This document shows positions 11,482 through 39,063 of a stretch of 55,842 nt of DNA, piece after piece. The stretch's first letter is position 1. Each line of letters opens with the position of its first letter. The notes beneath the pieces are model-generated. The model ran no database searches, was not told the origin of the DNA, and saw only the letters and a program-made list of their open reading frames with translations. This DNA is from an uncultured Mycoplasmatota bacterium. Its GTDB lineage: Bacteria > Bacillota_I > Bacilli_A > RF39 > UBA660. The stretch spans positions 1 through 55,842 of the forward strand of contig URYZ01000002.1 of the NCBI GenBank assembly GCA_900552235.1. Direction: 5' to 3'. Made by a program: the position numbers and the translations under genes.

Positions 11482-12528
11482 TTACAATCCAAGTGTATAT
11501 GGATTAGCACTTGTTCCATCTCCTCCGGTTATTTTAATATTTGATTTTAAATATAGGACTGGCCTCACATGAAAATTATGTGTAAAAAACATACCACCTG
11601 AATTATCTATATAACCATTTTGATTTGTATAATAGAAATTAACTCCAAGACCTCTATCAGGATTTTGATCTAATAACCACTCAGCATTTTTAATATTATA
11701 TAACCAATTCGTATCGTTACATGCTCTTATATCATAATTTGATGAATTTTCGTCATATAATTTTTTCGTTTCACAATTACTACTTGCATAGCCATAATCA
11801 CTTGCATACATTACCCCTATTTTTCCTATAAAACTATTTGGATTACTTCCATAGTAAAATTCATTACTTTTTGTATTTTTTGTTTTTCTTTCATAACTAT
11901 ACATATCTACTGGTGTTTGAATTAAACCATTTTGATATTTATATCCATCATATCCACCTAAATAATATTTTGTATTTCCTATCATATTTTGTGTTTCACT
12001 TGTTAACGAACTCAAATACGTTCCATTTAAATTATTATTCATATTCGTTTCTGGCCAAGCTATTTCAACAGAGTTATTACTATCAGCAACATATGTTCCT
12101 ATACTCTCATTTCTTACTAACTTTATTCTATTTTCTATCTTACCTTTTCCATCATCGGTTGGGAATACTCCTATTATTCTCCATACTTCATTATTAAATG
12201 TTACATAGTTTTTTGGATTTGCTCCCCTATATCTATATTCTGTTACACTTTCATTAGTTCCTATTTGAAGTGTTGTATCAGCTTCATGTGTTATGGTGTA
12301 AAGTCCACTGTTATTTTGATTATTAGTTAATTTTATAAGGGTATCTGCCCCACTTTTTTTTAATTCTCCTACAGTAGCTTCAATTACATTATTACTTGTT
12401 TTTGTAAAACTAAATAATGCATAACTTGAGTATCCTATACATACTAATATAATTAAAACTATTGTAAATAAAAAATAACTATTTATTATTTTAATATCTG
12501 TATTTAAAAAACTTATTATTTTTTTCAC
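11482..12528 (-). CDS. secreted paralog-family protein, copy 1 (function unknown)
   Basis: It starts at a GTG and has an N-terminal TM/signal segment ending in SSYALFSF. The core is NSGLYTITHEADTTLQIG...EYRYRGANPKNYVTFNNEVWRIIGVFPTDDGKGKIENRIKL...MYASDYGYAS...NWLY...EWLL...VRPVLYLK...GGDGTSANPY. The same core occurs at 29087-30535 and 37615-39063. Confidence 0.8.
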   Translation of the reverse strand: MKKIISFLNTDIKIINSYFLFTIVLIILVCIGYSSYALFSFTKTSNNVIEATVGELKKSGADTLIKLTNNQNNSGLYTITHEADTTLQIGTNESVTEYRYRGANPKNYVTFNNEVWRIIGVFPTDDGKGKIENRIKLVRNESIGTYVADSNNSVEIAWPETNMNNNLNGTYLSSLTSETQNMIGNTKYYLGGYDGYKYQNGLIQTPVDMYSYERKTKNTKSNEFYYGSNPNSFIGKIGVMYASDYGYASSNCETKKLYDENSSNYDIRACNDTNWLYNIKNAEWLLDQNPDRGLGVNFYYTNQNGYIDNSGGMFFTHNFHVRPVLYLKSNIKITGGDGTSANPYTLGL

Positions 12529-12571
12529 TATATCACAACCTTATTTTATTAACTATTAACTTTATAAGGTT

Positions 12572-12599
12572 ATTATATAATACATCCCCCCCATGTCAA
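12572..12599 (-). promoter_or_regulatory. sigma-A promoter TTGACA - 16 nt - TATAAT with a G7 run (12586-12592) in the spacer
   Basis: On the minus strand the -35 is at 12599-12594, the spacer is TGGGGGGGATGTATTA, and the -10 is at 12577-12572. It is followed by AACCTTATAAAGTTAA, which is shared with the promoter at 89-117. It drives the paralog gene 11482-12528. Confidence 0.5.
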
Positions 12600-25064: not shown

Positions 25065-25277
25065 TCACTTATTATTATAAATATAATTTTTAAAATTATT
25101 TTCTAATTTATTATCTATAATATCATCATATAAATTATGATTTGGATAAAAGTTAGAAAGAATTATTTTAGATAAAACACCCTCTTCTTCAAGAATGCTT
25201 GGAAAAAGTTCGCGACATAACTTCATCATATTTTCACCATATTTTTTCTTTATTATTTCTAAATCTTTATTTAACAT
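25065..25277 (-). CDS. stand-alone duplicate of the N-terminal ~65 aa of the upstream LRR protein (small ORF or pseudogene remnant)
   Basis: The first 22 residues (MLNKDLEIIKKKYGENMMKLCR) and about 75 nt are nearly identical to 26833-26760, and similarity then decays. The ATG lies 5 nt after the stop of the upstream gene. Confidence 0.5.
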   Translation of the reverse strand: MLNKDLEIIKKKYGENMMKLCRELFPSILEEEGVLSKIILSNFYPNHNLYDDIIDNKLENNFKNYIYNNK

Positions 25278-25282
25278 AACTA

Positions 25283-26842
25283 CTACCTTTTTAATACCTT
25301 TATATTTTTATCTAATTCTTCTTTTATTTTTATATTAACATCATACCCTATTCCTAGTAAAGAAGGCATAATAACATGTTTTAAATTTTCATCATATCTT
25401 AATAAACAATCTCCTACTTCTTGAAGACATGGAGCATTAAAAACTTCAAGTTTTTCATTCATAAGAAAAGATGCATCGCCTATTTTTTCTAATAAGGGTA
25501 AATTTAACACTTTTATTTCTTTATTATTTTGTAAAAAATCAAATCCTGCGACTTTTAAAGATGAAAAATTAACTTCTTCTAAAACCTCATTCCAAGTCAT
25601 AAATACATGTCCTGCTTTTACAAGTAATGGTAAACTTAAACTCTTTAAACTACAATTATTGTTTAAAAATCTATTTCCTATAACTTCAACAATAGGTAAA
25701 TTTATTTGTTTTATACATCTATTTTTACATATAAAATCATCACCTATTTTAGAAACATTAGGTAAGTTTACTTCTTTTAAATACTTATTTTGTTCTAAAA
25801 ATTTATCTTTAATTTCTATTAAATCATTACTATATAAACCTATTAAATTATTAAGTTTATTAAGTATCATAACTGTTTTATTATTATTTTCGTGAAGTAA
25901 ATTAATTACTTTAAAATCATTATGTTTTGTAACTTCAATCTTTTCTATTTTGGAAAAAGAGTTTGCAAAATTATCAAAAATTCTTATATCATAATTATTA
26001 ATTTCTTTATTTACTAAATCTAGTATAAAATAATCCATAACAATATATTTTTCACTTGCTAAATGTTTTACATTATAAGTATCAATTATTATATTATTAG
26101 GACAATAATAAATATTATTTATTTCATAATTATATTTATAATATTTTCCATCATTTGCTCTTACATAACCTGGAATTTCCAAATAATAAGAACTAACTTT
26201 TTGCTCTATTCCATAATATTTTTCAAAAGCATAAGTTAAACCTTCTTTAATATTATCTAAGTTATTAGAAAAAGTTGCATCAGGATTAACAACTCTATGA
26301 TTATATCGGTTTTTAATAGATAAAGTATTTGTTCCATCTTTTGTAAACTGAATACTTATAACAGAAGTTCCATATAAATCCTGTCTTTTAGGATCTTTAA
26401 AGTCTTCTCTTTTAATATCAAGAACATCTTTTTTAACAGCAAAGAAAACTCTACATGAATTAAGTCTATTGCTTCTAAAAGTACATAAACTTTCTCCTTT
26501 TTTGTAATATTTTTTATATTCTTGTATTTCTTCTTCTGTTAAACATTCTTTTAAAATATAACCTTTTTCATCAAGTAATTCTTCTGGGGTTTTATCTGTT
26601 TTAAATATATTCTTTTTAAAATTTGCTAAACTATATATAAAGTTTTTAAAATCTTCAAGTAAATTTTGCTCCTCTAAATCATCATATAAAGTGTGACTTG
26701 GATAAAAATTTGAAAGTAAAATACTTGACAGTCTTCCTTCTTCTTCAAGAATACTTGAAAAAAAACTTCGGCATAACTTCATCATATTTTCACCATATTT
26801 TTTCTTTATTATTTCTAAATCCTTATTTAACATATCATTCAC
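25283..26842 (-). CDS. leucine-rich-repeat protein (BspA-type LRRs) with an unknown ~330-aa N-terminal domain; no signal peptide
   Basis: The C-terminus has about 7 repeats of ~23 aa (LKEVNLPNVSKIGDDF..., IKQINLPIVEVIGNRF..., LKSLSLPLLVKAGHVF..., IKVLNLPLLEKIGDASF...). The N-terminal domain is unrecognised. Confidence 0.75.
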   Translation of the reverse strand: MNDMLNKDLEIIKKKYGENMMKLCRSFFSSILEEEGRLSSILLSNFYPSHTLYDDLEEQNLLEDFKNFIYSLANFKKNIFKTDKTPEELLDEKGYILKECLTEEEIQEYKKYYKKGESLCTFRSNRLNSCRVFFAVKKDVLDIKREDFKDPKRQDLYGTSVISIQFTKDGTNTLSIKNRYNHRVVNPDATFSNNLDNIKEGLTYAFEKYYGIEQKVSSYYLEIPGYVRANDGKYYKYNYEINNIYYCPNNIIIDTYNVKHLASEKYIVMDYFILDLVNKEINNYDIRIFDNFANSFSKIEKIEVTKHNDFKVINLLHENNNKTVMILNKLNNLIGLYSNDLIEIKDKFLEQNKYLKEVNLPNVSKIGDDFICKNRCIKQINLPIVEVIGNRFLNNNCSLKSLSLPLLVKAGHVFMTWNEVLEEVNFSSLKVAGFDFLQNNKEIKVLNLPLLEKIGDASFLMNEKLEVFNAPCLQEVGDCLLRYDENLKHVIMPSLLGIGYDVNIKIKEELDKNIKVLKR

Positions 26843-26921
26843 CCTTTTGTGCTCGATATTATAGCATATTTTGTATATTTTTTCAACTTGTTATACATAA
26901 TATTTATAAGGAGGACGTTTT

Positions 26922-29086: not shown

Positions 29087-30535
29087 TCAGTTAAAACAAG
29101 TACAAGGAGCTATAGGTTCAGATGTATAATAGTTATATGATTTTGTTACTATATTATTTTTTTTGTCCTTTAAAAATATATTAAAATTATAACTTGTATT
29201 ACGTTTTAAATCAATTCCAAGACAACACCAATAATTATGTATTACATTAGATGATATTGTAACATCATTCCAAGTACAATTATCTTGATTATTATCATTA
29301 TTTAAAACACAATATTTATCAAGTAAATATGATCCTGGGGTAACTGAAATATTAAAATTATTTTCAAAAATTTCATATCCATCAATTGTAGGTAATACAA
29401 CTTTACCATCAAGTGCAAAAACATATGGGTTGGTACTTGTTCCATCACCATCCATTATTTGAACATTAGGTTTTAAATATAAAGTTGGCCTTACTGCAAA
29501 TTTATCAGTTGTGTGCGCATCGTGAATAAGACCTACATCATATTTTTGAAACAAAACAAACTACGAACTCCCCCATTGATTTAATAGCCATTCTTGATCC
29601 TGAAAATCATATAACCAGTTTGTTGAATTGCATACACTTATTATATCTGTATCATTGTTTACACCATATAGTTTTCTATTTTCACAATTTAAACCTGCAT
29701 AGCCATAATCACTAACATACATTAAAGCTAAATCTCCTGTCCAACTATTTGGATTTGTTGAATAATAATATGTACCACTTCCACTTATTTTTCGTTCATA
29801 TGAATACATATTTGAAACTGTTATTCCAGCACTAGTATACCCACCTAAATAATATTTTGATGAGCCAATCATTTGTTGCGCTACACTTGATATATTATTA
29901 TAATATGTACCATTTAAATACGTATTTAATGTTGATGGACGAGCCCAATTATTTGAACCCTCAAGTATAGCGGCAGTCATAGTAATTTCATAATTATTAC
30001 TTTTATTTAAATATTCTACTTTTAACTTGTTTTTAGCATTTAATAACAAATTATCATATATATTATAGTTATAAGCTGATGATATATCATCCCATGCATA
30101 TGTTCCTATACTTTCATTTCTTATTAATTTTATTCTATTTTCTATTTTTCCTGTTCCATCATCAGTTGGGAATACTCCTATTATTCTCCATGTTTCATTA
30201 TTAAATGTTACATAATTTTTTGGACTTGCTCCACGATATCTATATTCTGTTATATCTTTATCATTTCCTATTTGAAGTGTTGTATCTTTTGAATGTGTTA
30301 TGGTATATAGACCACTATTATCTTTATTACCAGTTTGTTTAATAATTTTATCAACACCATAGCTTTCTTCATCACCTTTTAATAAATTATTTAATTCTTC
30401 TCTTAAATCTAATATATATTGTTTATCATTTGTATATTCACTTCTTAATATTCCAAGTACTAAAAACATACAAAGTGATAAAAGAAGAATTATTGAATAA
30501 ATAACTGTTGTTATTGCCATTCCTTTATTATTCAT
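29087..30535 (-). pseudogene. secreted paralog-family gene, copy 2, interrupted by one in-frame TAG (29563-29561); has a Cys-rich C-terminal extension
   Basis: The 327-aa and 155-aa track ORFs are in the same frame (...EWLLNQWGSS*FVLFQKYDVG...VRPTLYLK...DGDGTSTNPY). The aligned position in copy 3 is Tyr (NSSYEG). The N-terminus MNNKG-MAITTVIYSIILL is prepilin-like. Confidence 0.7.
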
Positions 30536-30596
30536 ATTACACACACCTTTATCTTATAAATTTATTATACAATAAAAATATAAAAAAAAATAGATA

Positions 30597-30818
30597 TTAT
30601 TGTAATATATCTATAAATTTTGACAACATATTAATACTATTAGCCATTTTATTTATTTTATCTTCTGAAGTTAATTTATATTCTTTTTTCATTTCTTCTT
30701 CAAATTGTTTAAAATAATTTTTATTTCTATTTAAAAACTTATACCAATATGACTTTTCTCTTAAATATTTTATATCATTTGGATTAGACCTTAGTCTATA
30801 TTGAATTTCTACATTCAT
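30597..30818 (-). CDS. YlbE-like small protein
   Basis: This 73-aa protein has an IKYLREKSYWYKFLNRN motif resembling the YlbE family. It is coupled by a TAATG overlap to the upstream ylbD-like gene, the same adjacency as in B. subtilis. Confidence 0.5.
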   Translation of the reverse strand: MNVEIQYRLRSNPNDIKYLREKSYWYKFLNRNKNYFKQFEEEMKKEYKLTSEDKINKMANSINMLSKFIDILQ

Positions 30819-33762: not shown

Positions 33763-33850
33763 ATCATTACCATCCTTCTTAAGTATCTATATTTATTATA
33801 AACTAAATTTATTTTTTTTCAAAGAGAACATGTCAAATTTTTGTAAAATT

Positions 33851-33879
33851 AAAAGATGAACATTAAAATTCATCTTTTA
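33851..33879 (-). terminator. hairpin terminator after pheT
   Basis: The stem is AAAAGATGAA / TTCATCTTTT with an 8-nt loop. The downstream T-run is weak. Confidence 0.45.
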
Positions 33880-33934
33880 ATTCAAAGTATTGAACTCTGT
33901 CAACACTCTGAAAATAAAGGCTATTAAATAACCT

Positions 33935-36307
33935 TTATTTATCTCTTAATACAGCATTACATTTAGTTGTAACTTCATCAATAATTCTTTTAAATACTTC
34001 CATTACTTCATCTTCTTCAAGTGTTCTTGTATTATCACTAAATGTTAATTTATATGCAATTGATTTTTCATCTTCTTTTACATTAGTACCTGTATATACA
34101 TCAAATACTTCAATATTAGTAAGAAGTCTAGACCCTGCATGCTTTATTACATCATATAATGCTTTTTGTTCTACATCTTTTTTTATTATAAAAGCAACAT
34201 CTTTTACTATTTCAGGATAAATACTTGCTTCTTTAAACTTTATAGGCTTTACATTCATCATAATATCTTTAAGTGATATTTCACATACATAAATATCATC
34301 TTTTTTAATACTTGGATGAACTTTACCTATAATTCCTACTTCTTTTTTATCTACAAGTATTCTTGCTCCAATTTTAGGATGTATATCATTAATACTATCT
34401 TTTTCAAAACTATATCTATTTTTAAGACCTACATAATCTAAAATATTTTCTATTATTCCTTTTATTAAATAAAAATCTACTTTTAAACTATTACTATTCC
34501 ATGAAGTGGTAACTAAATTACCTTTCATTAAAATAGTTAATAGCGTGTCTTCGTTATAATTTTCATCATATACTTTACTTATTTCATAAATACAAATATT
34601 ATCTTGCTTTCTTGCTTTATTATAATCATATATATTTAATAACGAAGGAATTAAACTTGTTCTTACAACACTTTTATCTATACTCATTGGATTAGGTAAA
34701 TATATATTTTTAATATCTTTATATTTAAAGCTATCTGCCATTTCTATCGAAGTTAAAGTATATGTTTTTACTTCATTAAGTCCTAAAGTTCTACATCTTT
34801 TACTTATATCTTTTCTAAATTTAACATCTTTTTCATAACCACCTTGTTTTATTTCTAATTTAGGAAGAGTTGATTTTAAATTATGATAACCATAAAGTCT
34901 ACCTATTTCTTCTGCTAAATCATTAACAAATGGATCAATATCTAGTCTTCTGTTAGGAATAGTACAAGTAAATATACCATCTTCTAAAGTATATTTAAAA
35001 TCTAATCTATCAAGTTCTTTTTCCATATCTGAAGTACTTATATCAATACCTAACATTTTATTAATATCATCTTTTTTAAATGTAACTACTTTTGGTGTTT
35101 TATCAATATTATCATACATTACTATACCATCATATATTTTAGCATTAGCATATTTTTCTAATAAGTGACAAGCTCTATTAAGGGCAAGAAGTGTATATTC
35201 ATAGTTAAGTCCTTTACCAAATCTTACTGAAGCCTCACTTCTTAAATTCAATCTATTAGCAGTATTTCTTATACTTACATTATCAAATATAGCACTTTCA
35301 ATTAAGATATTTTTTGTAGTATTTTCTACTTCAGTAGCCATACCTCCCATTACTCCCGCGATAGAAATAGGTTTTACACCATCAGTTATAACAATATCAT
35401 TACTTGTTAATGTTCTTTCTTTATTATCTAAAGTTATAATTTTTTCATTTTCTTTAGCATTTCTTACTTCAATAAATTTACCTATACTATCATAATCATA
35501 AAAATGAAGAGGTTGTCCAAATTCTAACATAACATAATTAGAAATATCAACAACATTATTTATACTTCTCATTCCAACGCTTTCAAGACGTTTTTTAATA
35601 AAATCTGGGCTTTCTTTTATTTCAACATCTTTAACTAATTTAGTTAAGAAATAAGGACATTTTGAAGTATTTACTGTTAAATTTATTAAATTATTACAAG
35701 ATTTATCTAAAACTTTATAACTTGTATCAGGAAGAGTAACTTTTTTATTTAAAATTGTACCTATTTCATAAGCAAATCCTATATGATAATAGCAATCATT
35801 ATTTCTATGTTTATGAACATCAAGTTCATATAATGTATCATCTAATCCTAAATACTTAAGTGGATCTTCTCCTACTACAGCATCACTATTTAATTCACAA
35901 ATTCCTTTATTATAGTTTTCTTCAGTTTTTTCTTCTATTCCAAGTTCAAATAAAGCACAAATCATTCCATTTGATTCTACGCCTCTTATTTTTCCTTTTT
36001 TAATAACATTGTTACCTGGCAAAACACACCCATCTTTAGCTACGATAACTTTAATACCTTGTCTTACATTTTTTGCACCACATACTATTTGTAATGTTTC
36101 ATTTCCAATATCAACAAGACATATATGTAAATGATCACTATCTGGATGATTTTCACATGTTAAAACTTCTCCAATTACTAAATTATCTATATGTTTAGTA
36201 ACTACTTTTTCAACATTAATACCTGCTTGTGTTATTTCTGTTGCTAACTTTTTTAAATCTCTATTTTCTATATCAACATAATCTTTAACCCAATTTAAAC
36301 TAATCAT
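33935..36307 (-). CDS. pheT: phenylalanine--tRNA ligase beta subunit
   Basis: The likely start is MISLNWVKDYV at 36307. It has tRNA-binding, B3/4, B5 and FDX-ACB domains in the usual order, and it follows pheS. Confidence 0.95.
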   Translation of the reverse strand: MISLNWVKDYVDIENRDLKKLATEITQAGINVEKVVTKHIDNLVIGEVLTCENHPDSDHLHICLVDIGNETLQIVCGAKNVRQGIKVIVAKDGCVLPGNNVIKKGKIRGVESNGMICALFELGIEEKTEENYNKGICELNSDAVVGEDPLKYLGLDDTLYELDVHKHRNNDCYYHIGFAYEIGTILNKKVTLPDTSYKVLDKSCNNLINLTVNTSKCPYFLTKLVKDVEIKESPDFIKKRLESVGMRSINNVVDISNYVMLEFGQPLHFYDYDSIGKFIEVRNAKENEKIITLDNKERTLTSNDIVITDGVKPISIAGVMGGMATEVENTTKNILIESAIFDNVSIRNTANRLNLRSEASVRFGKGLNYEYTLLALNRACHLLEKYANAKIYDGIVMYDNIDKTPKVVTFKKDDINKMLGIDISTSDMEKELDRLDFKYTLEDGIFTCTIPNRRLDIDPFVNDLAEEIGRLYGYHNLKSTLPKLEIKQGGYEKDVKFRKDISKRCRTLGLNEVKTYTLTSIEMADSFKYKDIKNIYLPNPMSIDKSVVRTSLIPSLLNIYDYNKARKQDNICIYEISKVYDENYNEDTLLTILMKGNLVTTSWNSNSLKVDFYLIKGIIENILDYVGLKNRYSFEKDSINDIHPKIGARILVDKKEVGIIGKVHPSIKKDDIYVCEISLKDIMMNVKPIKFKEASIYPEIVKDVAFIIKKDVEQKALYDVIKHAGSRLLTNIEVFDVYTGTNVKEDEKSIAYKLTFSDNTRTLEEDEVMEVFKRIIDEVTTKCNAVLRDK

Positions 36308-37344: not shown

Positions 37345-37561
37345 ATCCTCCTTCATAAAATAAAAAAGGTAATACCAAAGGACGAATTATTTCGTGGTAC
37401 CACCTTATTTCATAAGTATAACTTATCTTAAACCTTTAACGCAGGTAACGATAAAGCTAAAGAGTGAATTCATAAGATATTACTTAGAAGTTTACACCAA
37501 CCACTTCTTCTCTTAAAGTAATACTTCTTATTACTATTTTCTTATTATCGCTTTTTCTTAT
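37345..37561 (-). promoter_or_regulatory. T-box riboswitch leader, specifier TTC (Phe)
   Basis: On the minus strand I read AAGAGAAG, the distal-loop GGTGTAAAC, the specifier context GAA-TTC-A (TTC at 37468-37466), and the T-box sequence AAGGTGGTACCACG. A terminator and T-run lie before the pheS SD. Confidence 0.85.
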
Positions 37562-37614: not shown

Positions 37615-39063
37615 TTAAATTCCAAGAATATATGGATTACTACTTGTTCCATCTCCACCAGTTATTTTAACATCTGTTTTTAAATATAATGTTGGTCTAA
37701 CATCAAGATTTAAAATAGCTGTATAATTAGAATTAGTACCAGTATAATTATTAATCATCCCTTCATCACGCAACATATAAACATGCCCTTCATAACTCGA
37801 ATTTTGTGGTAATAGCCATTCTTTCCATGAGGCAAGAGGATTAGTATTTTTATTATATAACCAATTTGTATCATTACATACTCTTATATCATCGTTTGAT
37901 GCATTTTTATTATATAATTTTTTTGTTTCACAATTAGCGCTTGCGTATCCATAGTCACTTGCATACATAAGAGCCACTTTTCCAACCCAACTATTTGGAT
38001 TTGTTCCACGATAATATGTACTCCCACTTATTTTCCTTTCATATTGATATATTTGCTCAACAGTTACTAAATATTCACTTACATAGCCTCCTAAATAATA
38101 CTTTGATTCAGCCACATAATTTGAATTTGATAAATTATTATAATATGTATTATTTAAATATACATTTAAAGTTGCATTTACCCAATTATTTCTACCGTTA
38201 TTATCCCATGTTTTCTTTCCTATACTTTGATCTTTTATTAATTTTATTCTATTTTCTATCTTACCTGTTCCATCATCTGTTGGAAAAACACCAATTATTC
38301 TCCATGTTTCTCCATTAAATGTTACATAGTTTTTGGGATTTGCTCCCCTATATCTATATTCTATTATACTTTCTGTTGCTCCTATTTGAAGTGTACTATC
38401 AGCAGGATGTGTTATGGTGTAAAGTCCACTATTATCTTTATTATCTGTTAATGCTATTAAAGTATCAGTAGCAGGAGGAATAAATGGTGTTTCAACACTT
38501 ACTTTAAACTTAACATTACCTCCTATAATAGTTTGATGTGTTCCTCCTGCTTCAAATATATTTGTTTTAGGACTTATCCATGATGTTAAGCTATATTCAT
38601 GTGTTTCTGTTGCATTTGTAAATGTATTAGTACATAATACATAACTATTTTCATATTTATATTTATCTAAATCTGTTATAAAAGATGGTCCATAAACTAT
38701 ATTTTTTGTTTTATTATTTAAATATACTTTACCTTTATCTATATTATTTAAATACTCAATATCCATAGTTAAATATACTATATAATTAATATCTTTATTA
38801 GTTGTATTATTTACACTTACTTTAAAATTAAATACATTACCACTTGCAATACCTTCTTCATCTGTTTTTAAAGTATCTCCCGTTACATTAATATTATTAG
38901 TTTCTTCATAAGTTAAAGTAAGTGATCCTATATTAATTTGATGCTGTTTATTTCCTCTTAAAACAAGATTATAAGTAGCATAACTTACTCCTACCATTAA
39001 ACATAATATTAATGTAATATATAAAGTTAATTTTATATTTTTTATTTTCTTATTCTCTTCCAT
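37615..39063 (-). CDS. secreted paralog-family protein, copy 3, with an extra ~170-aa N-terminal module
   Basis: The signal/TM segment ends in GVSYATYNLVL and is followed by INIGSLTLTY (camelysin/SipW-substrate-like). An Asn/Thr-rich module comes next, then the shared core (DNSGLYTITHPADSTLQIG...RYRGANPKNYVTFNGETWRIIGVFPTDDGTGKIENRIKL...VRPTLYLK...GGDGTSSNPY). Confidence 0.8.
   Translation of the reverse strand: MEENKKIKNIKLTLYITLILCLMVGVSYATYNLVLRGNKQHQINIGSLTLTYEETNNINVTGDTLKTDEEGIASGNVFNFKVSVNNTTNKDINYIVYLTMDIEYLNNIDKGKVYLNNKTKNIVYGPSFITDLDKYKYENSYVLCTNTFTNATETHEYSLTSWISPKTNIFEAGGTHQTIIGGNVKFKVSVETPFIPPATDTLIALTDNKDNSGLYTITHPADSTLQIGATESIIEYRYRGANPKNYVTFNGETWRIIGVFPTDDGTGKIENRIKLIKDQSIGKKTWDNNGRNNWVNATLNVYLNNTYYNNLSNSNYVAESKYYLGGYVSEYLVTVEQIYQYERKISGSTYYRGTNPNSWVGKVALMYASDYGYASANCETKKLYNKNASNDDIRVCNDTNWLYNKNTNPLASWKEWLLPQNSSYEGHVYMLRDEGMINNYTGTNSNYTAILNLDVRPTLYLKTDVKITGGDGTSSNPYILGI

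Follow-up and report, generated by a model that had tools for sequence, protein, structure and literature searches.

Why would an uncultured bacterium of the order RF39 scatter among its core genes several copies of a gene whose products share one domain and have nothing in common at their N termini? The question is raised by a 55,842-nucleotide (nt) stretch of contig URYZ01000002.1, from an uncultured Mycoplasmatota bacterium (assembly GCA_900552235.1), which we call the window and which carries three such paralogs. We consider it fairly probable that they belong to a recombining repertoire of exported ligand-binding heads carried on interchangeable leader, fiber, or pilin modules. The family relationship of the genes, the fold match of their core, their modular architecture, and the mosaic alleles found between strains lead to this reading. 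All three genes lie on the minus strand, where the original prediction, made from the sequence of the window, had placed them:

Copy 1, 11482..12528, minus strand: open reading frame (ORF) of 348 amino acids (aa), with a transmembrane/h-region leader ending GYSSYA/LFSF, a short strand-like linker, and a DUF6273-type core of ~290 aa.
Copy 2, 29087..30544, minus strand: 486 codons, with a likely start at the ATG at 30535; leader, core, in-frame TAG, and C-terminal extension.
Copy 3, 37615..39063, minus strand: ORF of 482 aa, with a leader ending VGVSYA/TYNL, a predicted beta-sandwich module of ~165 aa (the N-module), and the core.
Conserved 5' third of the core in copy 1 (NSGLYTITH...ENRIKL), 12090..12350, minus strand: the proposed recombination hinge.
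Conserved 5' third of the core in copy 2, 30098..30358, minus strand: recognized by its DNA identity to the other copies.

A tblastn search with each copy as the query returned exactly three copies in the window, and all of the core motifs quoted in the original prediction are invariant in a three-way alignment. Copies 2 and 3 are 51% and 57% identical to copy 1 in protein sequence, while the N termini of the three are mutually unrelated. The DNA identity of about 85% that had been estimated by hand, with runs of identical bases, proved close to the mark: segments 12090-12350, 30098-30358, and 38210-38470 are 79-84% identical over ~260 nt (by blastn, 85.9% over 249 nt and 82.9% over 252 nt) and contain identical runs of up to 25-27 nt. 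The remaining core DNA is 65-72% identical between copies; at the base composition of the window (23% guanine plus cytosine), we estimate that two random sequences would agree by chance at ~32% of positions. Two of the three copy pairs have a synonymous difference (pS) of 0.26 in the conserved segment and of 0.47-0.50 elsewhere in the core; for copies 2 and 3, the two regions are similar (0.39 and 0.44, respectively). The halving of pS, seen in two of three pairs and over few sites, fits homogenization of the segment.

The family extends well beyond the window. We fetched 73 loci or contigs from other assemblies, which carry L labels below, and use P labels for representative homologous proteins. 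The nearest genome is that of “Mycoplasma sp. CAG:611” (order RF39), one scaffold of which matches the window at 97% identity over 3.8 kb; L005 holds its allele of copy 2. The corresponding GTDB family, CAG-611, belongs to the order RF39 (PMC8035907). The description of a three-copy family thus holds within the window but not beyond it: the near-conspecific CAG:611 assembly alone carries at least nine loci with family members, several of them fragmented or at contig ends. In a HMMER scan, the family comprised 3967 clusters at 50% identity (E ≤ 1e-3), or 1932 at E ≤ 1e-10. Two tandem cores occur in 102 of the 120 closest homologs, and giant members have up to eight.

To what known domain does the core belong? 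The original prediction had noted a resemblance of its C-terminal end to DUF6273, and this stands, on the grounds of shared fold and transitive homology, since the Pfam scores themselves are below threshold. Copy 1 scores 20.9 bits at full length and 21.9 bits for the core only (E 1.7e-4 to 3.6e-4) against the Pfam model (PF19789; 172 positions, gathering score 23.5 bits). PF19789 matches 9 of 55 alignment members at E ≤ 0.01, and a relative in L018 is above threshold for two families, DUF6273 (25.6 bits) and the prepilin family N_methyl (31.5 bits). Moreover, a search with a 30%-identical relative, L033, retrieved many proteins with precomputed PF19789 annotation. An AlphaFold (AF2) model of the core alone has a mean predicted local distance difference test (pLDDT) value of 89 and a predicted template modeling (TM) score of 0.90; searched against the PDB with Foldseek, it gave 9qa6 as the sole significant match (E 7.9e-6, probability 1.00, 312 columns), at 14% identity and a TM score of 0.49 normalized to the query, covering the whole ~290-aa core. 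This structure is the immunoglobulin A (IgA) peptidase of Thomasclavelia ramosa, of which residues 31-322 are annotated as DUF6273 (PMC12402451). It holds the only DUF6273 domain with a solved structure. When the full-length copy 3 model was compared with viral models, the best matches were gut-phage proteins named “DUF6273 domain-containing” (E 2.9e-7 to 1e-5). The sequence EWLL ... VRP[VT]LYLK is invariant in all three copies; a C-terminal aromatic/Leu motif followed by VRP-x-L-[YW]-L is a DUF6273 signature. Judged by sequence and predicted structure, the core is a divergent DUF6273 domain, to which the family adds a near-invariant N-terminal beta subdomain lying beyond the 172-position Pfam model.

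Other searches with the copies yielded little. NCBIfam returned no matches for copies 1-3 or for N-modules. A sequence search of the PDB gave a lone match to PsaD (45 residues, E 2.3e-6), which we discounted as compositional, and otherwise nothing useful, with an archaeal pilin at E 0.57. DUF6273 has been described as a C-type-lectin-like target of diversity-generating retroelements (DGRs) in phage receptor-binding proteins (PMC10743442, PMC11792537, bioRxiv 10.1101/2024.10.15.618418). We dropped the lectin label for our own proteins, because Foldseek found no significant PDB match besides 9qa6.

Where in this domain does the family vary? We measured variability on a set of 144 core units, none identical to another, taken from close homologs. 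In the numbering of copy 1, there is almost no variation at residues 65-144, and the lowest column entropies (0.2-0.5 bits) fall in the stretch encoded by the conserved 5' third. The highest fall near the C terminus:

Hypervariable stretch of copy 1, 11557..11676, minus strand: residues 285-324, from EWLL to VRPxLYLK, with entropies of 1.7-2.2 bits.

This stretch lies at the C-terminal end of the DUF6273 match and is equivalent to the variable region of the phage proteins, where the DGR target is likewise the C-terminal end of DUF6273 (PMC11792537; bioRxiv 10.1101/2024.10.15.618418). Two cysteines are conserved, Cys 252 in 120 and Cys 270 in all 144 of the core units, a pair that fits an extracellular domain.

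Have the paralogs exchanged sequence, as had been suggested? Sharp mosaic switches in copies 2 and 3 bear this out. The 5' part of copy 3, down to 38284, and its truB flank are identical to L050, in which the gene is followed by a methyltransferase gene. From 38225 onward, copy 3 and its 3' flank (T-box leader, pheS, and pheT) match L047, in which the gene follows an alaX-like gene. The two parts overlap in a single tract:

Crossover tract, 38226..38283, minus strand: 58 nt identical in copy 3, L050, and L047, located by the switch in informative sites.

Informative sites 5' of this tract match L050 in 44 of 44 cases, and those 3' of it match L047 in 219 of 222. By sequence comparison, copy 3 is an exact chimera of two genes that occupy separate loci elsewhere. 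A single inversion between inverted paralogs would produce exactly such a structure, flanks included.

Copy 2 has two features that the original prediction overlooked:

In-frame TAG of copy 2, 29561..29563, minus strand: splits the gene into ORFs of 327 and 155 aa.
C-terminal extension of copy 2, 29090..29410, minus strand: 107 aa, Cys-containing, and identical in P0244, which has another leader and another core.

The alleles that it resembles make copy 2 a three-way mosaic. Its 5' part follows L005 at 97-100% identity down to ~30104-30109; its middle part follows neither L005 nor L053 and is nearly identical to the core of P0241-P0243, which have a copy-1-type leader; and its 3' end follows L053 and P0244. 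The core carries an insertion of ~45 aa, and diverged versions of the extension occur in L053 and P0241-P0243. The intact relatives P0241-P0243 have Gln (GSSQFILFQKYDVG) where copy 2 has TAG, so that the change is from CAG to TAG. An alternative genetic code was ruled out as an explanation of the TAG codon, given that all neighboring genes read intact with table 11 and that this codon is CAG/Gln in the nearest alleles. Upstream of copy 2, a conserved 73-aa ORF (MNVEIQYRLRSNPND...) lies between a 120-aa gene and copy 2 (30600-30818, minus strand; L005 3633-3854); after this ORF come a T10 tract and an extended -10 box (TGTATAAT).

Other strains show the same modules in other combinations, so that the swapped N termini claimed in the original prediction are found both within the window and in front of the same cores elsewhere. 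P0021 joins a copy-1-type leader to a C-terminal core part identical to that of copy 3; P0241 joins the same type of leader to the core and extension of copy 2; and P0244 joins the N-module to another core and the copy 2 extension. P0021 and P0241 stand for 30 member sequences each. The truB-linked gene, to which the N-terminal part of copy 3 belongs, shows the converse:

Leader and N-module of copy 3, 38479..39063, minus strand: kept in the truB-linked gene in 11 of 11 other contigs, whatever the head.

In these contigs (L050 and L064-L073), the head is of the DUF6273 type in 2 of 11, as it is in the window, and an unrelated domain of ~380 aa in the other 9, and the gene has three different downstream flanks besides that of the window. 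This second head family (MIPVYYD, WANAVTV, IYGIYDMSGG) occupies 5416 to ~7150-7520 in L064-L070, L072, and L073 and is also found at 1-532 and 9586-10050 of L005; it is joined either to the same N-module or to a copy-1-type leader. Its allele in L066 carries a dockerin insertion. We left the family unnamed, as its only Pfam match was a weak one to FGE-sulfatase (L066, E 0.006). Natural “swap experiments” of this kind, with the same head on different leaders and different heads on the same leader, could be used to assign function to the modules.

The slots themselves turn over. Downstream of copies 1, 2, and 3 lie polA, yqeG, and the T-box/pheS leader, respectively; the T-box leader (37375-37557, minus strand; Rfam RF00230, 110.9 bits) separates the stop codon of copy 3 from pheS. 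The alaX-pheS slot contains a full gene in L047-L049; among 10 long contigs, it is empty in 8 and holds an in-frame remnant of 53 aa in 2 (L059 and L062, 4065-4226), in which a 12-nt microhomology, ACAAGTAGTAAT, links the leader to the last eight codons. In the window, the slot after pheT appears to be empty; in other strains, it is filled by a paralog of ~875 aa with a poly-G promoter cassette. A protein identical to copy 1 is encoded upstream of polA in two other gut metagenome contigs (L051 and L052), where the promoter-proximal sequence and the upstream flank differ from those of the window. L001 was rejected as an ortholog of copy 1, its flanks not matching the window. The original prediction was therefore right in placing the copies beside core genes, but because these slots are variably occupied, the placements are not simply old.

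Two explanations would account for these data without recombination in the cell or at a hinge. The mosaics could be artifacts of short-read assembly, with different paralogs or strains joined across shared tracts of 25-60 nt, in which case copy 3, and perhaps the flanks of copies 1 and 2, would exist in no cell; we think this unlikely overall, although particular joins could be assembly chimeras. Both parental forms of copy 3 are recorded while its exact protein is absent from the public collection, so its join could be an assembly chimera across the 58-nt repeat. The largest default k-mer of a common short-read metagenome assembler is 55, slightly shorter than that tract, and a misjoin is conceivable. 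Many of the CAG:611 paralog loci lie at contig ends, and the window loses synteny with other contigs at each of the three copies or next to it, and again where pheT meets orf846. Against this, mosaic and module-swapped alleles recur across independent studies and assemblers, some in contigs of 200-985 kb, and P0021 and P0241 each stand for many member sequences. The in-frame remnant, like the empty slot, is a clean biological allele, and the single inversion that explains copy 3 keeps gene orientation on both sides. Genes that coincide so often with synteny breaks and contig ends are likely sources both of real rearrangements and of misassemblies in RF39. The other explanation, which we regard as quite improbable, is that purifying selection on an essential subdomain alone has kept the ~250-nt segment while the paralogs diverged independently. 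It would suit the fact that the segment encodes the most conserved stretch of the protein, as well as the similar pS values of the copy 2/copy 3 pair. It does not account for the halved pS of the other two pairs, nor for the position of both mapped crossovers (38226-38283 and ~30104) at the 3' edge of the segment, and the leader swaps imply further crossovers at its 5' edge.

How might recombination and gene turnover work together? We propose that homologous recombination among the paralogs would be the diversifier, with the near-invariant ~250-nt 5' third of the core, a shared promoter cassette, and the conserved 3' end serving as crossover hinges. Its outcome would be new combinations of leader and head and swaps of heads, with chromosomal rearrangements as a by-product. 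Members might in addition be switched off and on as genes are lost, shortened by internal deletions, or interrupted by nonsense mutations, and possibly as the poly-G tract of a promoter spacer slips.

What might the heads be mounted on? In copies 1 and 3, the leader consists of a basic N terminus and a hydrophobic stretch, followed by G-x-S-Y-A, a motif that appears to fit the small-x-small rule of signal peptidase I and resembles signals of the SipW type. After this motif, copy 1 has only a short strand-like segment, whereas copy 3 has a beta-sandwich of ~165 aa according to the AF2 model of the full-length protein (pLDDT 78). The best PDB matches of this N-module are pilins of the donor-strand type, namely FimA (E 2.5e-4), CfaB, and PapA. 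A hidden Markov model (HMM) of the N-module matched many relatives, and in L021, two genes encoding the N-module alone lie directly downstream of a head-bearing gene. In L041, a distant relative from Erysipelotrichaceae, the N terminus is of the BsaA/SipW type (TIGR04090, 77 bits against a cut-off of 60), and in L037, Peptidase_M73/camelysin (PF12389) scores 21.4 bits against a cut-off of 22.5; the N-module HMM matches L037 (E 1.9e-34) and does not match L041. A link of the N-module to TasA was therefore set aside as an analogy only, since its HMM does not reach the TIGR04090-positive relative.

The leader of copy 2 is of another kind. It reads MNNKG/MAITTVIYSIILL (MNNKG/MAITT), with Thr at position +5 and no Glu5, and is prepilin-like. 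In CAG:611, the same type of leader is found on an intact gene of 332 aa (L005), which is followed by two N_methyl pilin genes. The L018 relative joins a prepilin (N_methyl) to the DUF6273 core, and an ORF of 2168 aa in L040 combines a prepilin-like N terminus (N_methyl, 20.8 bits against a cut-off of 21.2) with a C-terminal core match. As far as their sequences tell, both kinds of leader module are of filament-forming types. The SxA-type site, the Cys pair, and the certified prepilin or BsaA/SipW N termini of relatives together suggest that the proteins are exported, and display at the surface or on a filament is probable. The N-module or the pilin-like leader would mount the head on a fiber or pilus, and the head would bind a ligand with a specificity set by the hypervariable loops, by analogy with the DGR-diversified phage DUF6273 proteins.

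Several of our results weigh against this reading. None of the three copies reaches the gathering threshold of PF19789, and copies 2 and 3 have no Pfam match at all. No TasA, camelysin, or SipW model (TIGR04088, TIGR04090, and PF12389) matches copies 1-3 or the N-module of copy 3, and N_methyl (PF07963) does not match the copy 2 leader, as tested on the near-identical L005 allele, so that membership of the window copies in those families is not demonstrable. A regular expression for the serine box of signal peptidase I, aimed at a sipW gene, found no match in the window or in the 73 loci, no profile search having been run. The poly-G differences described below are mostly between paralogous cassettes, and in all cassettes but one, a base change keeps the length from the -35 side to the -10 box constant. 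The missing record of the exact copy 3 protein belongs here as well. Finally, for the sole bacterial DUF6273 domain that has been studied, that of the IgA peptidase, no significant effect on catalytic efficiency was reported (PMC12402451).

Could the proteins be something other than variable binders? If they were membrane enzymes or envelope maintenance factors anchored by their N termini, the lack of a cell wall sorting motif, a hydrophobic N-terminal helix that could stay uncleaved, the many invariant charged residues (E97, R99, R101, E213, R214, K215, and D244 in all three copies), and the housekeeping neighbors would all make sense. However, neither sequence nor fold searches matched the core to any enzyme family, and the copy number, presence and absence, head swaps, and hypervariable loop are unlike those of a housekeeping enzyme; we judge such a role very unlikely. 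Polymorphic toxins, in turn, would have the architecture of the truB-linked gene, a conserved N terminus with a swapped C-terminal domain, and remnants of prophage receptor-binding proteins would explain the domain itself, DUF6273 being common in gut phage tail and decoration proteins (PMC10743442). But no small immunity-type gene follows the copies, whose neighbors are polA, yqeG, the T-box/pheS leader, or a methyltransferase gene; no phage genes flank them; and the heads are large, folded, binding-type domains in one to eight tandem copies. Both readings were set aside on gene context, and we hold either to be extremely improbable. A recombining repertoire of exported heads remains the reading that we prefer.

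How does such a repertoire compare with known systems? The “tentaclins” of gut phages, Mtd-like DGR targets with a DUF6273 domain, have the same fold, with the most variable part at the same C-terminal place. Unlike them, the family described here is chromosomal and lies among housekeeping genes; its heads are fused to secretion, fiber, or pilin modules rather than tail modules; and its variation comes from paralog number and segmental recombination rather than adenine mutagenesis. We found no DGR within the window, with neither a template repeat nor a reverse transcriptase in it: the core repeats are the three paralogs only, and no plausible reverse transcriptase motif was seen in ORFs of at least 200 aa. 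The DUF6273 domain of the T. ramosa IgA peptidase is likewise the N-terminal part of a secreted protein of a gut Firmicute, but it precedes an M64 protease domain and a sortase motif and is only 14% identical.

Fiber proteins of the TasA/BsaA/camelysin group share with the family a signal ending in G-x-S/T-Y/F-A, a strand, and a beta-sandwich, and the L021 operon, with its head gene and two N-module genes, resembles bsaA-bsaB-bsaC (PMC11580942), an operon that includes the adhesin-like BsaC (PMC9674648, PMC11580942). In contrast to that group, the N-module matches no TasA/SipW model, and its best structural matches are chaperone-usher pilins, not TasA. The L018 fusion and the L040 ORF recall the modular pilins PilB and PilC of Streptococcus sanguinis (PMC8179133, PMC9934059), whereas the copy 2 leader (KG/MAITT) lacks the Glu5 of type IV pilins and copy 2 is not beside pilin genes in the window. 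We saw no pilus machinery genes.

Recombining or phase-variable surface families are familiar from Mycoplasma (Vsp, Vlp, and MgPar) and Neisseria (pilE/pilS and opa). Like those, the present family is multicopy, occurs in a host-associated bacterium with a reduced genome, and shows mosaics from recombination between paralogs, a homopolymer in a promoter spacer, and pseudogene or remnant copies. It differs in that there are no silent cassette archives, each copy having its own promoter and flanks; in that the proteins are not lipoproteins; and in that the variable unit is a folded DUF6273 head rather than a repeat region. The comparison rests on alleles that differ between strains here, not on switching within a clone.

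Might expression of the family also vary? Copy 1 is preceded by a promoter whose spacer contains one of the two G/C homopolymers of at least 6 bases in the window, the other being a G7 tract at 211-217 on the plus strand, intergenic and near the left edge:

Promoter of copy 1, 12572..12599, minus strand: TTGACA-T-G7-ATGTATTA-TATAAT, with a 16-nt spacer and a 12/12 consensus match.
G7 tract of the copy 1 promoter spacer, 12586-12592, minus strand: found by homopolymer scan.
5' untranslated region of copy 1, 12529..12571, minus strand: a 10-bp hairpin (AACCUUAU...AUAAGGUU) with the likely Shine-Dalgarno sequence AAGG in its 3' arm.

This is the only 12/12 match to the sigma-70-type consensus in the region scanned, and the G7 tract lies within the spacer between the -35 and -10 boxes, a placement shared with phase-variable promoters. 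The same cassette, with G7, G8, or G9 and in two variants beside the -35 box, precedes paralogs in L001, L002, L005, L047, L048, and L051. The hairpin of the untranslated region has a predicted folding energy of -11.2 kcal/mol (z = -2.6); the region is conserved in sister cassettes, and the CC-to-UU changes of L051 and L005 would keep G-U pairing. A degenerate poly-G cassette (TTGACTTGGGGAGGGGTATATTGTATAAT) at 1-130 of the window, minus strand, precedes a gene that begins at 47 (MKKQNIIMGISFVLL...) and continues past the left end; this gene may encode a fourth member of the family or a different exported protein under the same control. No terminator-like site was found after copies 1, 2, or 3, nor, for copy 3, before the T-box.

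A more specific proposal, which we offer only tentatively, is that RF39 varies specificity independently of DGRs, reshuffling filament-mounted DUF6273 heads, together with the unrelated second type of head, among many chromosomal slots through homologous recombination at a dedicated, nucleotide-conserved hinge, and gating the expression of individual members by the shared poly-G cassette and the Shine-Dalgarno hairpin. If so, the scaffold that phages retro-mutate would be diversified by their bacterial neighbors through cassette recombination, and possible drivers would be host IgA, dietary or mucin glycans, and phages that use the proteins as receptors. Even without gating, the family is of interest in its host. 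RF39 bacteria have small genomes, are uncultured, and are common in the human gut, and almost nothing is known of their cell surface. Strain-variable exported DUF6273 heads are a concrete candidate for attachment to host or dietary ligands, would be an obvious target for IgA and phages, and give DUF6273 a bacterial context besides the IgA peptidase. A literature search found no paper describing this DUF6273 family in RF39. As for the host itself, contigs from other strains carry spore germination, sporulation, and Mur ligase genes, with the GerA and Mur ligase genes inside stretches collinear with the window; these genes suggest that the organism is probably a walled spore-former.

Two further regions of the window deserve mention. 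The interval from pheT to the 846-aa gene contains, at 33763-33935, a back-to-back pair of stem-loop elements that resemble terminators. A 217-nt direct repeat (25076-25292 and 26632-26848), whose two copies are 76% identical and lie 1556 nt apart, encloses a 519-aa gene (minus strand, 25283-26842) that appears to carry BspA-like leucine-rich repeats at its C terminus. Compared with L053, this gene is rearranged at its 3' end, after which its own 5' end appears a second time. It, too, looks like a variable gene.

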